From the sequence record OR327750.1: a stretch of 64,000 bases of DNA; one strand, 5' to 3'. The translations under genes and the position numbers were made by a program. This stretch comes from Escherichia phage KK4. Of the stretch, positions 20,241 to 25,487 are shown piece by piece; the stretch's first letter is position 1, and each line of letters starts with the position of its first letter. The notes below the pieces were generated by a model. It was not told where the DNA came from. It made no database searches and was given only the letters and a program-made list of their open reading frames with translations.

Positions 20241-20771
<531 letters not shown>

Positions 20772-21227
20772 TTAAAAGAGGCTGTTCATTATTCGGTAAA
20801 GTGAAGGACCCATCACATATTGCCACTGAGTACGAGGAATAAGAGCAAAAGCATCCATCTCTGGAATCATAACGCCATCTTTATTTTCAAAATAAGACTC
20901 GCAATGGCAATTTCTAAACATCTCATGCTTTACTGGAATCGTATAATAAAATAACTGTAAGTCTTTATTACTAGAATATTTAAATACACCTAAGTCTTCT
21001 AGAAGGTCTGGATTATAATCGATAAAACCAGTCTCTTCTGAGCATTCTCTTTTTGCAGCTTCCAGTGCATTCAAATCAGAACTTTCTACACGCCCCTTTG
21101 GAATATCCCAGCGATGTGCAATCATTCCAGGTTTACGAGAACCGGTAACTCGTCCCATAAATAAATCTTTATCTTCTGTCATAAAGATAATACCAGCTGA
21201 TAATGTTTTCATTTTAATTTCCTGCAT
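20772..21227 (-). CDS. nudE: Nudix hydrolase NudE
   Basis: 151 aa; Nudix box GRVESSDLNALEAAKRECSEETG. Confidence 0.85.
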   Translation of the reverse strand: MQEIKMKTLSAGIIFMTEDKDLFMGRVTGSRKPGMIAHRWDIPKGRVESSDLNALEAAKRECSEETGFIDYNPDLLEDLGVFKYSSNKDLQLFYYTIPVKHEMFRNCHCESYFENKDGVMIPEMDAFALIPRTQWQYVMGPSLYRIMNSLF

Positions 21228-21697
21228 TCAGTGATAAAATTATTTAATTTTTGAGCATATTTCTTTTCATCAAAAATCTTTTGTTGTCTGCGTAAACGCC
21301 ATGGCATTTCAATGAACATACGCCATATTCCTGATAATACTGCTGCTGTAAAAATATTAACAAGTATAGTTAAAAGAACCCAATCTCCTATTCTGTCCAT
21401 TGGATTTTTTATAAAAAAGTAAAATACGAACGATGATATAGGAAGACTAATGATATACCACAGAAGAACCTTCTTATCTGTGAACCAATCAGCATTCGTT
21501 AACTTAGCGCGACCGTTTTGAATACATACGAACTTATCATCTGTTACAGTAAATGGCTTAGCTGCTTGATATCCCATTCTAAACTCCCTAATTAATCGTT
21601 TCTTTGTATCTTCAGAACAGCCGCTCCAGTCAACTCTATCAACTGAAATGCCATCGTCCCCATCATCTAAATCATACCAGCGAGTTTTTAAAATCAT
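21209..21697 (-). CDS. small membrane protein, 162 aa (2 predicted TM helices)
   Basis: Hydrophobic segments LLWYIISLPISSFVFYFFI and WVLLTILVNIFTAAVLSGIW; C-terminal FITECRKLK. Confidence 0.5.
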   Translation of the reverse strand: MILKTRWYDLDDGDDGISVDRVDWSGCSEDTKKRLIREFRMGYQAAKPFTVTDDKFVCIQNGRAKLTNADWFTDKKVLLWYIISLPISSFVFYFFIKNPMDRIGDWVLLTILVNIFTAAVLSGIWRMFIEMPWRLRRQQKIFDEKKYAQKLNNFITECRKLK

Positions 21698-22056
21698 TTA
21701 ATTTTCCTACAATCACTCACAAACTCTTCCATTGATTCTTTTTCAATATAAGACATATAGCTATTATATTCCTTTAATTGTATTTTGTAATCCTTTTTTC
21801 TTTGCCAATTTATTTTAAAATTATCATAATGAAAATATAACATGGTACCAAAGAATGAAAATAATGAAATCGCTATAGTATAACAAAGCTCACTCCAAAC
21901 TTCTGTTATATTTACTGTGCCGTCGATGTTTAAAATAAGACAGTCAATCATTAATCCAATAAGACTACCTGCAAGAGCTGCAAATGCTGATATGGCAAGA
22001 ATTAATAGTGCCTCTGGAAACGAATATTTGACTTTATTTAGTTTTGGCTTTTGCAT
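21694..22056 (-). CDS. small membrane protein, 120 aa (2 predicted TM helices)
   Basis: Hydrophobic segments; C-terminal EEFVSDCRKIK; ATGA overlap. Confidence 0.5.
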   Translation of the reverse strand: MQKPKLNKVKYSFPEALLILAISAFAALAGSLIGLMIDCLILNIDGTVNITEVWSELCYTIAISLFSFFGTMLYFHYDNFKINWQRKKDYKIQLKEYNSYMSYIEKESMEEFVSDCRKIK

Positions 22057-22430
22057 CGTGATTCCTTAACAAATTTCATAATTTCATTAAATTCATACGC
22101 AGCAAGTTTAAGCTGATGTTCCTTTTTAATCTTTTTACACTGAGCTTTCCATTCGCGTACGCGTTTACGATAATGTCTTCCTTGATACCAGTATCCTACC
22201 CAATTTACAGGTACTAATAAAAATGGAACTACTAATGGAAGAATTAATACTAACAGAAATACTGCGTCTGATTCAATATCAGTAGTAACATCTATAACTA
22301 TTCCAATAATCATTAGGATTATAAATGATACAGCTGTCACAGGACCTACTAATACATCAGTAGGAATTAGCTGGCGCTTTAATTCATACTTCAACGGTTT
22401 ACTTGGAAGGTATAGTGATGGTTTTGACAT
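22038..22430 (-). CDS. small membrane protein, ~130 aa (2 predicted TM helices)
   Basis: Start at MSKPSLYLP; C-terminal KFVKESRCK. Confidence 0.45.
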   Translation of the reverse strand: MSKPSLYLPSKPLKYELKRQLIPTDVLVGPVTAVSFIILMIIGIVIDVTTDIESDAVFLLVLILPLVVPFLLVPVNWVGYWYQGRHYRKRVREWKAQCKKIKKEHQLKLAAYEFNEIMKFVKESRCKSQN

Positions 22431-23013
22431 ATTCTCTACATTCCTTAACAAATTTTTCTAGTAATAAATCGCTTTCAAAATTGGGATTTTCTACGAATTT
22501 ATCAAAAAGATCATCAACAATAGTTAAGATATTCTTTTTACTAAGAATACGTTTATTTTCATGCTTCGTTTCAGAATCAACTATAAGAGTAAAGAAATAT
22601 TTCTTGCCCTGAAATTTTACAGTAGTATCAATATAAAATAAATTTGACTTTTGTAAATTACGTTTAAACCATGCGTCACTTAAACTATAAACACCGAGAT
22701 AATCAAAATCGTCGTTTAAATAACAAACCGTCCATTCAGGAGAAATGAAATCAGTAAATTCAACATCAAAATCACACGTCAATGAATGAATTGATTCAAT
22801 ACTGTTAATGAGTATTCCAGGACGTATTAAAGACTTTTTACCTCTAGAAAATCTTCCGGAAAGGCTTTCATCAGTTTCATATGAAGACCCCCAATAGTAA
22901 TTACGTCCTTCTGCCATGCGTTTAAGAGCATTTAGTAATTGGTCTGGAACATCAACCTGTCTTTGGAACTCTTCAAACATTGAATTGAAATCACTTTGCA
23001 TTTTCATTTTCAT
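22399..23013 (-). CDS. hypothetical protein, 204 aa
   Basis: ATG after GGAG; C-terminal KFVKECREY encoded by the conserved junction sequence aaatttgttaaggaat. Confidence 0.5.
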   Translation of the reverse strand: MKMKMQSDFNSMFEEFQRQVDVPDQLLNALKRMAEGRNYYWGSSYETDESLSGRFSRGKKSLIRPGILINSIESIHSLTCDFDVEFTDFISPEWTVCYLNDDFDYLGVYSLSDAWFKRNLQKSNLFYIDTTVKFQGKKYFFTLIVDSETKHENKRILSKKNILTIVDDLFDKFVENPNFESDLLLEKFVKECREYVKTITIPSK

Positions 23014-23032
23014 TCCTATTTACTCCAAGTAT

Positions 23033-23050
23033 AAGGGGCCGAAGCCCCTT
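23033..23050 (-). terminator. stem-loop (possible terminator or RNA-stability element)
   Basis: AAGGGGC-cgaa-GCCCCTT hairpin right after stop; weak U-tract. Confidence 0.35.
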
Positions 23051-23054
23051 ATCA

Positions 23055-23648
23055 TTATTTCAGAGAATTAATGTATTCCTGAACATCGGCAGAGGTAGTT
23101 TCAACCCCAGAAATATTACCGTTAAAGGTTTCAACTCGAGCAAGGGTATCTTCAATATCAACCTTAGTCAGTGCTGCAATTTCAACTACATCATCAGCAG
23201 TACTAATTCCAAGGGCATTTGCTGCACGAGTTTCACGGATATATTCCAATTTAACCGCAAGTTCTTGACGAGCATCATCTAACTCAACTACTTTCTTGGC
23301 GATTTCAATTCGCATTTCAGCATAACCGTCAGCCTTAGTAGTCAACTGCTCAGCTGTTCGACGATATAGTAAACCGAGTTTAGCATGCATTGTTACATCT
23401 TGGCCTTCGGAAAGAAGTTTACGAATTTCACGCTCTTTTGATTCGGCCTGTCGATTCTTTTCGATAACAAGTTCACGAATACGTTTTTCTTCGTTAATAG
23501 ATTTAACAGAAGCAGTTTTTAGATCTTTAATTTTATCAAGTAGTTTTGCTGCTGCAGCAGTATACTGTTCTTCGACAGATAGATTTTTAGCCATAGCAGA
23601 ACCAAGTTTAGTGCGAATAAACTCAACAATTTTCTTCAGTGTGTTCAT
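23055..23648 (-). CDS. long alpha-helical coiled-coil protein, 197 aa (PspA/IM30-like architecture, tentative)
   Basis: Charged heptad-rich sequence throughout; own early promoter; stem-loop downstream. Confidence 0.5.
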
Positions 23649-24242: not shown

Positions 24243-24806
24243 TTATTTACCTAGTTTACTTATTATAGCTTCTGCAGCAGCTTTTAGCTTAGATGCAGTG
24301 TTAATACGATTTTTAATTTCAGTATACGCATCGCCAAGAACATCAAGGCTATCAGAATAAACACTTACACTATTGCGTTCGCTATTTGAAATAGAACCTT
24401 TAGTTTTGCGGTCAAAATCGGTGTACACGTCTTGAAGATCGCGGGCTGCCTTCTTTGCATCATCCAATGCATCAAGAGCTTTATTCAAAGCATTAACGTA
24501 TTTTTTAGTGTCGAACATATTCTTAGAAATTTTAACAGGTGCGCGTTCAGGAGTAGCTAACACAGATTTAGGAACCTGAGCGCCAGATGCCAATTTCTTA
24601 GAAATTTTGAAAAATGCTTTATTGAATTTATTTTCTTGACTCATTGTAAAAGAACTATTATCGATGTTGTACATTTCAATAGCTTTAGCTTTCCACTTAA
24701 GAAAATCGCCGCGGTCTTTTGGGTCCAATTGGAAGAATACTTTAGTAAGATCTGCTTCAGATGGTAATTTTGCTGCTTCGGTTAAAAATTCGGCATAGGT
24801 TTTCAT
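24243..24806 (-). CDS. internal-protein-like head protein with capsid targeting sequence (IPIII-like), 187 aa
   Basis: N-terminus MKTYAEFLTE resembles T4 IP capsid targeting sequence MKTxxEF...E; Lys/Ala-rich; terminator downstream. Confidence 0.6.
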   Translation of the reverse strand: MKTYAEFLTEAAKLPSEADLTKVFFQLDPKDRGDFLKWKAKAIEMYNIDNSSFTMSQENKFNKAFFKISKKLASGAQVPKSVLATPERAPVKISKNMFDTKKYVNALNKALDALDDAKKAARDLQDVYTDFDRKTKGSISNSERNSVSVYSDSLDVLGDAYTEIKNRINTASKLKAAAEAIISKLGK

Positions 24807-24896: not shown

Positions 24897-24923
24897 AAAA
24901 AGCCCCAACCTTTCGGTCGGGGC
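24897..24923 (-). terminator. rho-independent terminator after IPII-like gene
   Basis: Hairpin GCCCCGACC-gaaa-GGTTGGGGC then UUUUU; identical copy at 25454-25480. Confidence 0.7.
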
Positions 24924-24931
24924 TAAGAATG

Positions 24932-25405
24932 TCATTTGATTTGTTTAGCAGACCAAATGCGGTCTTTAATAATTTTTTGGATGTCTTCAACATACTCAAG
25001 AGAGTGAACATGTGGATTATCTTTGAAACTATAAGCACGGGCTAACTTTTGGCCTTCGGTTTTGATTACTAAAAGCTCTTTAAGGATAGCTTCATATTTA
25101 GCGATAATTCCTTTAACGATATTTTTTTCTTGTGCCGCTTTAGGATCTGCTTTAGGAGCAGGTTTACCCGAAGCCTTTGCAAAAGCAGCGCCAGTAGCAA
25201 CTAAACTTTTCCAGGCCATACTAACTGCATTTCCCGTAAATCCTTCCGCTTTCATGTCGCGTGCAAACTGGAATCGCGATTCATCAGAAGCATCTTTATA
25301 GGAATATTTACCCGCGGCAATGGCAGCTTTTGCAACAGCTTGAATTTCGGTGCTAGATGCTTCATTTAACACCGCTTCATTTAAAAATTGAGTATATGAT
25401 TTCAT
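24932..25405 (-). CDS. internal-protein-like head protein with capsid targeting sequence (IPII-like), 157 aa
   Basis: Starts MKSYTQFLNE; TATAAATA late promoter upstream; ORF-track N-terminal extension rejected because it reads through terminator and promoter. Confidence 0.55.
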   Translation of the reverse strand: MKSYTQFLNEAVLNEASSTEIQAVAKAAIAAGKYSYKDASDESRFQFARDMKAEGFTGNAVSMAWKSLVATGAAFAKASGKPAPKADPKAAQEKNIVKGIIAKYEAILKELLVIKTEGQKLARAYSFKDNPHVHSLEYVEDIQKIIKDRIWSAKQIK

Positions 25406-25453: not shown

Positions 25454-25480
25454 AAAAAGCCCCAACCTTTCGGTCGGGGC
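25454..25480 (-). terminator. rho-independent terminator at end of tRNA/small-RNA transcription unit
   Basis: Same hairpin and U-run as 24897-24923. Confidence 0.7.
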
Positions 25481-25487
25481 TAAGCCT

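Follow-up and report, generated by a model that had tools for sequence, protein, structure and literature searches.

What keeps the same short peptide at the ends of four consecutive phage genes, when the codons that write it also form the start signal of the next gene? The question is raised by the 64,000-nucleotide stretch of Escherichia phage KK4 DNA analysed here (sequence record OR327750.1, hereafter the window), in which the genes e.5, e.4, e.3 and e.2, followed by nudE, encode one soluble and three predicted membrane proteins whose C-terminal tails share the pattern F-[VI]-x-[ED]-[C/S]-R (FVKECR in e.5, FVKESR in e.4, FVSDCR in e.3 and FITECR in e.2). The explanation which we favour, at a probability of roughly 0.6, is a run of coupled early accessory genes with helical membrane hairpins, in which the shared tail is constrained both as a peptide and as a nucleotide sequence; a docking role for the tail is a distinctly weaker possibility. 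The features on which the argument rests are the following.

22399-23013, minus strand: e.5 orthologue, 204 residues (PHROG 2607, E 9e-110; T4 annotation)
22038-22430, minus strand: e.4 orthologue, 130 residues (PHROG 2604, E 5.5e-70, residues 1-130 of 130)
21694-22056, minus strand: e.3 orthologue, 120 residues (PHROG 2330, E 2.5e-58, residues 1-118)
21209-21697, minus strand: e.2 orthologue, intact, 162 residues (PHROG 2203, E 6.3e-77, residues 1-160)
20772-21212, minus strand: nudE, Nudix hydrolase (Pfam NUDIX, E 5e-13; T4 annotation)
22440-22455, minus strand: first copy of the 16-mer AAATTTGTTAAGGAAT, e.5 codons K-F-V-K-E-(C), just upstream of the e.4 start
22061-22076, minus strand: second copy of the 16-mer AAATTTGTTAAGGAAT, e.4 codons K-F-V-K-E-(S)
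21706-21723, minus strand: e.3 tail motif F-V-S-D-C-R (TTT GTG AGT GAT TGT AGG), with AGGAAA as the e.2 Shine-Dalgarno sequence
21221-21238, minus strand: e.2 tail motif F-I-T-E-C-R (TTT ATC ACT GAA TGC AGG), with AGGAAA as the nudE Shine-Dalgarno sequence

The genes from e.5 to nudE form a run of overlapping, translationally coupled accessory genes, dispensable in the laboratory in T4, and their order and overlaps (32, 19, 4 and 4 nt, respectively, along e.5/e.4/e.3/e.2/nudE) are the same as in that phage. The e.5 protein ends ...LLLEKFVKECREYVKTITIPSK and the final 32 nt of its gene overlap the start of e.4, which begins at ATG 22430, not at TTG 22451, with a conserved N-terminus (MSKPSLY) matching that of T4 e.4. 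The e.4 protein ends ...IMKFVKESRCKSQN and its gene overlaps e.3 by 19 nt; the AAGGAA of the second 16-mer copy is the Shine-Dalgarno sequence, 6 nt ahead of the e.3 ATG; e.3 ends ...SMEEFVSDCRKIK and e.2 ...LNNFITECRKLK, and each gene has an ATGA overlap with the following one. The last translationally coupled gene of the run is nudE, whose ribosome-binding site (AGGAAA) lies inside the e.2 tail codons.

A preliminary description of this DNA, made from its letters alone, had reported three consecutive genes for small two-helix membrane proteins, joined by a repeated sequence that serves both as the C-terminal codons of one gene and as the ribosome-binding site of the next, and had seen the same motif at the end of the 204-residue gene. 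The three genes (162, 120 and 130 residues, each with two transmembrane (TM)-length hydrophobic segments and a basic tail), the double use of the junction DNA across all four overlaps and the FVKECR ending of e.5 are confirmed here, and the comparison with the T4 e.2-e.5 open reading frames (ORFs) that the description had proposed identifies the three genes as orthologues of T4 e.4, e.3 and e.2. The repeat itself, supposed to recur at each junction, is exact at two of them only: the 16-mer AAATTTGTTAAGGAAT has one copy at e.5/e.4 and another, 379 nt away, at e.4/e.3, and the e.3/e.2 and e.2/nudE junctions hold degenerate versions, GAGTTTGTGAGTGATTGTAGG and AATTTTATCACTGAATGCAGG, whose likeness is at the peptide level.

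Junction similarity nevertheless stands above background, as the same description had expected. By second-order Markov simulation, chance would supply 0.05 exact 16-mer pairs within 1 kb per window, and four of the five matches to F[VIL]x[ED][CS]R in the six-frame translation of the 64-kb window are the ends of e.5, e.4, e.3 and e.2. The complete T4 genome (168,903 bp) has three matches to the stricter pattern F[VI]x[ED]CR, where about 0.3 would be expected, and each of them is a gene end, of e.5, e.3 or e.2; the tail peptide occurs nowhere in T4 outside the e.2-e.5 cluster. Its distance from the stop codon is at most 12 residues, and orthologues of other genera keep it.

The codons of the tail indicate what has been kept. 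Mosigvirus orthologues, 38-59% identical overall, retain the tail (e.5 FIMECR, e.4 FVKEIR, e.3 FIKECR), and the Dhakavirus e.2 orthologue (42% identical) ends NLNEFIEECRK, with CGT for Arg. An extra two-helix protein of 101 residues, encoded about 2.4 kb away in Mosigvirus and present in 150 records, ends ENFIKECR, the tail of Mosigvirus e.3, from which its gene differs there by four synonymous and zero non-synonymous changes; the tail is the sole significant similarity between these two proteins. Synonymous diversity in the e.3 tail is normal within Tequatrovirus (pS 0.26), and the ratio of non-synonymous to synonymous change (dN/dS) is 0.16 there. Since the tail is kept through synonymous codon changes, including four different Arg codons, this pattern shows purifying selection on the peptide itself.

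Constraint is also visible at the nucleotide level. Both 16-mers lie inside invariant blocks, of about 38 nt for the first copy and about 45 nt for the second, among 14 distinct Tequatrovirus sequences in which 20% of all columns are variable and just 10% of 16-nt windows show no variation; the blocks take in the Shine-Dalgarno sequence and start codon of the next gene, its first codons, which are dual-coded, and the tail codons of the gene before it. Zero synonymous variation in or around either copy, overlaps typical of coupling at four of four junctions, and a motif that always stops 0-10 nt short of the next start, also in e.5, whose own stop is 11 codons further on, would all fit a junction that is purely an RNA element for translational coupling (a U/A-rich enhancer, a Shine-Dalgarno sequence and an overlapping start) carrying an incidental peptide. 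We consider this quite improbable, given that Arg is written AGA, AGG, CGA or CGT among the tail copies, Phe TTT or TTC and Lys AAG or AAA, and that the Shine-Dalgarno sequence is drawn from different codons according to the junction: K-E (AAGGAA) at e.4/e.3, R-K (AGGAAA) at e.3/e.2 and e.2/nudE, R-G-K in the extra Mosigvirus gene and E-E in Dhakavirus. The synonymous diversity and low dN/dS of the e.3 tail speak against it as well, and the four junction RNAs have no shared or significant structure (folding z +0.9, 0.0, -2.0 and +0.6). The junction is thus composite: the bases that encode a selected peptide double as a translation-initiation region, and they are constrained because they also form the Shine-Dalgarno sequence, the start and the overlapping first codons of the next gene.

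What the tail is attached to differs from gene to gene. The e.5 protein is soluble, with no hydrophobic or TM-like segment on the Kyte-Doolittle scale (its single-sequence AlphaFold2 model, at pLDDT 38, was unusable), and e.4, e.3 and e.2 each have two TM-length segments on that scale, preceded in e.2 by a soluble N-terminal domain of 75 residues. Net charges are +4 at the N-termini, -3 in the inter-helix loops of e.4 and e.3, and +10, +2 and +6 in the three C-terminal tails. The charge distribution would place both termini in the cytoplasm, and the three proteins are well supported as predicted inner-membrane helical hairpins. Their cytoplasmic tails are long (35-52 residues) and form the conserved part of the proteins. 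An AlphaFold2 model of e.4 built on the family alignment (pLDDT 74) has a helix at residues 30-49, a 4-residue loop and an unbroken helix at 54-129, so that TM2 runs on into a cytoplasmic helix of about 50 residues.

The pattern of constraint follows this layout. In alignments of 38-92 family members, entropy is 3-8 times as high in TM1-loop-TM2 as in the juxtamembrane stretch that follows and in the tail. The hairpin dN/dS is 0.65 for e.4, 0.43 for e.3 and 0.64 for e.2; the cytoplasmic parts of these proteins have values of 0.06-0.17, and e.5 has 0.06. The membrane hairpin is thus well supported as a fast-evolving anchor, the constrained part being the juxtamembrane stretch and the C-terminal helix with its tail. 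Hairpin values below 1 would fit either a loosely constrained anchor or one with some diversifying sites. In the proposed arrangement, the variable hairpin would anchor each protein and the conserved helix, with the tail [LIM]-x-x-F-[VI]-x-[ED]-C-R, would face the cytoplasm.

The common architecture and orientation of the three membrane proteins had led the preliminary description to suppose a family produced by duplication through recombination at the junctions. In its full form, this explanation makes e.4, e.3 and e.2 tandem duplicates by unequal junction recombination, a paralogous family acting in superinfection exclusion or lysis timing, and we regard it as unlikely. For e.4 and e.3 the paralogy part has some basis, as their N-termini are alike (MSKPSL and MQKPKL) and their profiles align end to end (hhalign, E 7e-5, probability 62%); HMM-versus-sequence (hidden Markov model) searches over all ORFs of the window did not link the e.4, e.3 and e.2 families significantly (E 0.3-0.7), and pairwise BLASTP among the three gave E 0.008-0.15. 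The match between e.3 and e.2 covers the last 13 residues only, and the extra Mosigvirus member likewise shares just the tail. A match of e.4 to e.2 in hhalign was discarded as an artefact of a natural hybrid protein (P0101) in the e.2 alignment. That the hairpins, and e.3 and e.4 in particular, descend from one ancestor is plausible, given that signal is erased in fast-evolving TM segments, but unproven. The tail itself is not evidence of whole-gene duplication, because soluble e.5, otherwise unrelated, has the same one, and leftover duplication history does not explain the shared sequence, codon usage showing selection on the peptide.

Crossovers at the junctions do occur in nature, a point in favour of the duplication scheme. 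In phage T2 and in the IMG/VR contig L006 (IMGVR_UViG_2974787500), e.3 abuts nudE through a precise 485-bp loss of e.2, and the switch from e.3-type to e.2/nudE-type sequence falls inside the motif TGCAGGAAA, at GATTG|CAGGAAATTAAAATG; the e.3 and e.2 tail motifs at 21706-21723 and 21221-21238 are the two arms of this crossover. Of about 502 Tequatrovirus records, about 441 have the e.2 N-domain, leaving about 12% without it. Junction motifs are real crossover sites, and recombination at the junctions, as the preliminary description had it, is borne out for e.2; it is not for the perfect 16-mers. Neither loss nor duplication of e.4 was seen, e.5 and e.4 each occurring once in exactly 643 phage records, so that the e.4 copy number is constant despite the identical flanking copies. 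The recombinant junctions that deletion or duplication of e.4 through the 16-mer would leave were not found in metagenome contigs and IMG/VR either, a search of low power in which the normal junction appeared in 8 contigs only. The record counts were relied on in its place; BLAST with synthetic recombinant junctions joins the two normal pieces and cannot single out recombinants.

Could the junction instead be a dedicated recombination linker, kept because it promotes modular shuffling of accessory genes? The model would be the elements called PeSLs, which combine an intergenic early promoter with a terminator-like hairpin and are found genome-wide in T4-type phages (PMC2839356, PMC4122927). 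Breakpoints of the e.2 indel inside the motif are consistent with such a linker, as is its place in a variable part of the genome, PeSLs acting in regions of this kind (PMC2839356, PMC4122927). The tail DNA of Mosigvirus e.3 further resembles that of Tequatrovirus e.5 at 19 of 21 nt, against 13 of 21 for its own orthologue, a likeness in sequence that hints at exchange between junctions. The motif is nonetheless inside coding sequence, carries neither promoter nor stem-loop, and is limited to a single cluster in each genome; at the junctions coding sequences overlap, and promoter-like sites number 23, against 21.6 in shuffles. The best repeat, the 16-mer pair, yielded no recombinants in the 643 genomes or the small metagenome sample, and other rearrangements break elsewhere, within TM1 in UFV11 and inside e.3 in phiE142. 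We hold a dedicated linker to be very improbable, and no such element is needed to explain junction identity. In the composite junction that we favour, identities of 9-16 nt act, as a by-product, as microhomology for precise loss of gene cassettes, such as that of e.2 in T2, and past gains or exchanges of tails may have arisen by the same route.

Several natural variants of the cluster were observed besides the e.2 deletion. In phages UFV05 and UFV11, e.3 is lost and residues 1-32 of e.4 are fused in frame, within TM1, to residues 89-162 of e.2; the UFV11 hybrid (P0101; OP555982.1, L005 2501-2821) keeps a two-helix hairpin and the e.2 tail, its e.2 N-domain being deleted. An internal deletion in phiE142 (L010 3393-3492) takes most of e.3 and leaves its last ~100 nt and the next ribosome-binding site. 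A metagenomic e.4 variant of 69 residues (P0200) has both TM helices deleted in frame, its N-terminus and cytoplasmic tail remaining. In the e.2-deleted contig (L006 2417-3032), e.5 is split into ORFs of 145 and 92 residues by a frameshift or a sequencing error.

As to function, a T4 expression study classes the RNAs of e.2 to e.6 and nudE as early and reports all their proteins as detected, those of e.4 and e.5 appearing early (PMC9697503). Knockdown of each of these T4 genes with dCas13d had no fitness effect in the laboratory (PMC11879866), a result of limited sensitivity since gene e scored likewise (PMC11879866). The superinfection-exclusion or lysis-timing role that the preliminary description had offered, which belongs to the duplication scheme, finds no support here. 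Its appeal lies in proteins that are small, early and located in the inner membrane, like T4 Imm, and in a hairpin resembling that of class II holins, with both termini inside and a basic tail, encoded two genes upstream of the endolysin gene e. Early expression argues against a holin-like lysis role, holins being late and T4 already having holin T; the knockdowns gave no laboratory phenotype; and no match to Imm, Sp, RI, holins or any functional family was found by Pfam, PHROG, NCBIfam or fold. For Imm in particular, no Pfam, PHROG or NCBIfam match was obtained at E <= 0.1, and Foldseek against viral models returned the e.4 family only; for class II holins, Pfam and PHROG gave no holin family match.

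More generally, e.2, e.3, e.4, e.5 and e.6 showed no functional relatives in Pfam, PHROGs, NCBIfam, PDB sequence and profile searches or Foldseek against BFVD. A profile search of 1.84 billion representative proteins gave 11 matches, all close variants, and the families occur in Tequatrovirus and Mosigvirus only, apart from e.2, which is in Dhakavirus as well. Some NCBI records label e.3 and e.4 'sulfurtransferase', and no sulfurtransferase or rhodanese match was found in Pfam or NCBIfam at E <= 0.1; the labels 'DNA primase' (e.3) and 'host specificity protein' (e.6) are likewise unsupported by Pfam, NCBIfam and PHROG scans. All three names look like propagated mis-annotations.

A tail selected as a peptide on proteins of such different build could be a docking or assembly peptide, through which e.5 and up to three membrane-tethered proteins would meet one cytoplasmic partner at the inner membrane early in infection. 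We put this forward tentatively, as a possibility and not an expectation; the role would presumably be accessory and condition-dependent. A wider version, in which the tail is a portable docking peptide defining an unrecognised early module of T-even phages (soluble e.5 together with the variable hairpins of e.4, e.3, e.2 and the extra Mosigvirus member, converging on a single host or phage partner on the cytoplasmic side of the inner membrane), seems to us more doubtful again. If it were true, the fast-evolving hairpins might tune the site or target, for example in excluding competitors or evading membrane-associated defence, and the single conserved Cys of each tail could form an intermolecular metal or redox site. 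A docking signal of this kind would also offer a handle of 6-8 residues, for pull-downs and point mutants, on a block of T4 "dark matter" genes.

Several observations weigh against the explanation that we favour. An obligate e.2-e.5 complex is made less likely by members that stand alone (Dhakavirus has e.2 without e.3 to e.5) and by losses of single members. The tail is not a rigid motif, as the e.4 tail reads FVKE-S/I-R-C, its Cys displaced by two positions, and N replaces D/E in one e.3 variant, and by hydrophobic moment it is not significantly an amphipathic helix in three of the four proteins, e.2 being the exception (p ~0.03). Its constant position 0-10 nt upstream of the next start codon and the lack of synonymous variation in the two 16-mer copies are what a role in RNA only would also predict, and the hairpin dN/dS, being below 1, cannot tell relaxed constraint from diversifying selection. 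The combination of a selected tail and a translation start, with crossovers as its by-product, nevertheless remains the reading that we prefer.

The surroundings of the run are those of a Tequatrovirus, to which the window belongs: the 2 kb considered here are 100% identical in nucleotide sequence to Escherichia phage Paracelsus, GADU22 and several others, and about 500 other Tequatrovirus genomes are 90-99% identical to the region. According to the ORF list, PHROG and the T4 record, the gene run is e.6, e.5, e.4, e.3, e.2, nudE, e lysozyme and denV, all on the minus strand. The flanking features are as follows.

23748-23720, minus strand: promoter-like site, upstream of e.5, with e.6
23055-23648, minus strand: e.6, upstream of e.5
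23031-23052, minus strand: GC-rich hairpin with a UUCG loop, between e.6 and e.5
20241-20735, minus strand: e lysozyme (ORF list, PHROG, T4 record)

Because the coding strand has no U-tract after it, the hairpin at 23031-23052 is probably not a terminator and would rather stabilise or process the RNA. In the old T4 record L13089, a stem-loop follows msp3 (e.6), and msp1 to msp3 have early promoters ahead of them.

Other tandem arrangements were noticed in passing. In Mosigvirus MZ234025.1 (L004 4231-5025; also in L009 and L010), three tandem genes of 101, 90 and 65 residues replace e.2/nudE downstream of e.3 and end W-[VI]-[SA]-S-S-x-x-C followed by TGCTAAGGAA, a second tandem family with a conserved C-terminus on the next ribosome-binding site. 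A gene of 228 residues starting MNSSKVFNSQARAV stands directly after the extra two-helix gene in Mosigvirus (L004 6650-7390) and directly before the e.2 orthologue in Dhakavirus E33 (L013 1722-3001), and this recurring neighbour might be functionally linked to the genes with the tail motif. Elsewhere in the window, two exact copies of a 32-nt sequence (plus strand AAAAAGCCCCAACCTTTCGGTCGGGGCTAAG) lie in direct orientation at 24897-24928 and 25454-25485, forming terminator-like hairpins on the minus strand after each of two paralogous minus-strand genes (24243-24806 and ~24932-25400), whose products start MKTYAEFLTEA… and MKSYTQFLNEA… and resemble the start of T4 IpII/IpIII, MKTYQEFIAEA. Exact direct repeats of 19-21 nt less than 400 nt apart, for which chance gives 0.05 per window, are found at 28208-28228/28574-28594 and 56707-56725/56797-56815.

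Among known systems, the nearest is T4 itself. Its e.2-e.5 genes are direct orthologues of those in the window, with 81-96% protein identity (81.7% for e.3 and T4 e.3/msp6, with the same position between e.4 and e.2/nudE), and formerly bore the names msp7, msp6, msp5 and msp4. Family membership agrees, with e.4 in PHROG 2604 and PF26873, e.3 in PHROG 2330 and e.2 in PHROG 2203 and PF26896, the two Pfam entries being precomputed on homologues. In the T4 record, e.2, e.3 and e.4 already bear the annotation 'conserved hypothetical, predicted membrane protein'; e.2-e.5 are known genes, catalogued as T4 ORFs since the 1990s, and in themselves ordinary. T4 differs in that its reference e.2 is frameshifted to 102 residues, the window copy being intact at 162, and in having ipII and ipIII, which are absent between denV and e in the window. 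The T4 gene (AF158101 67491-67960) has its frameshift in an A/T run (…TTTTTTATAAAAATCC…), the C-terminal half with NFITECRKLK being intact in the other frame; the 162-residue form is found in 8 of 8 metagenome loci and in most phages, and PHROGs splits the two halves into 35263 and 35580.

With T4 Imm, e.2 to e.4 have in common that they are small, early, non-essential inner-membrane proteins, and they differ from it in sequence, profile and fold, Imm having neither the long conserved cytoplasmic helix nor the F-x-x-E-C-R tail; e.2 to e.4, for their part, are not known to have an exclusion phenotype. Class II holins such as S21 of phage 21 also have two TM helices, termini predicted inside and a basic C-terminal tail, and the locus is near an endolysin gene; the RNAs of e.2-e.4 are early and not late, and the T4 holin is gene t, elsewhere in the genome. 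Coupled overlapping phage genes of the ATGA type offer a closer parallel, the downstream Shine-Dalgarno sequence lying within the last codons of the upstream gene, here in four successive overlaps; unlike in ordinary coupling, the upstream C-terminal peptide is conserved across proteins that are non-homologous or barely homologous. A literature search by gene name, which left out the T4 genome review, found no description of the tail shared on the next ribosome-binding site or of its use in crossovers, the detail being that four consecutive proteins, one soluble and three in the membrane, and a fifth in Mosigvirus carry one C-terminal peptide; the sources that mention the genes were two omics papers (PMC9697503, PMC11879866). 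The junctions finally resemble PeSLs as short conserved boundary sequences in variable regions that coincide with insertion or deletion breakpoints (PMC2839356, PMC4122927), and differ from them as coding sequence with a ribosome-binding site, having no hairpin or promoter and being confined to one cluster. The locus is a natural example of a selected boundary peptide that creates microhomology and leads to precise excision of an accessory gene, which complements the PeSL model.

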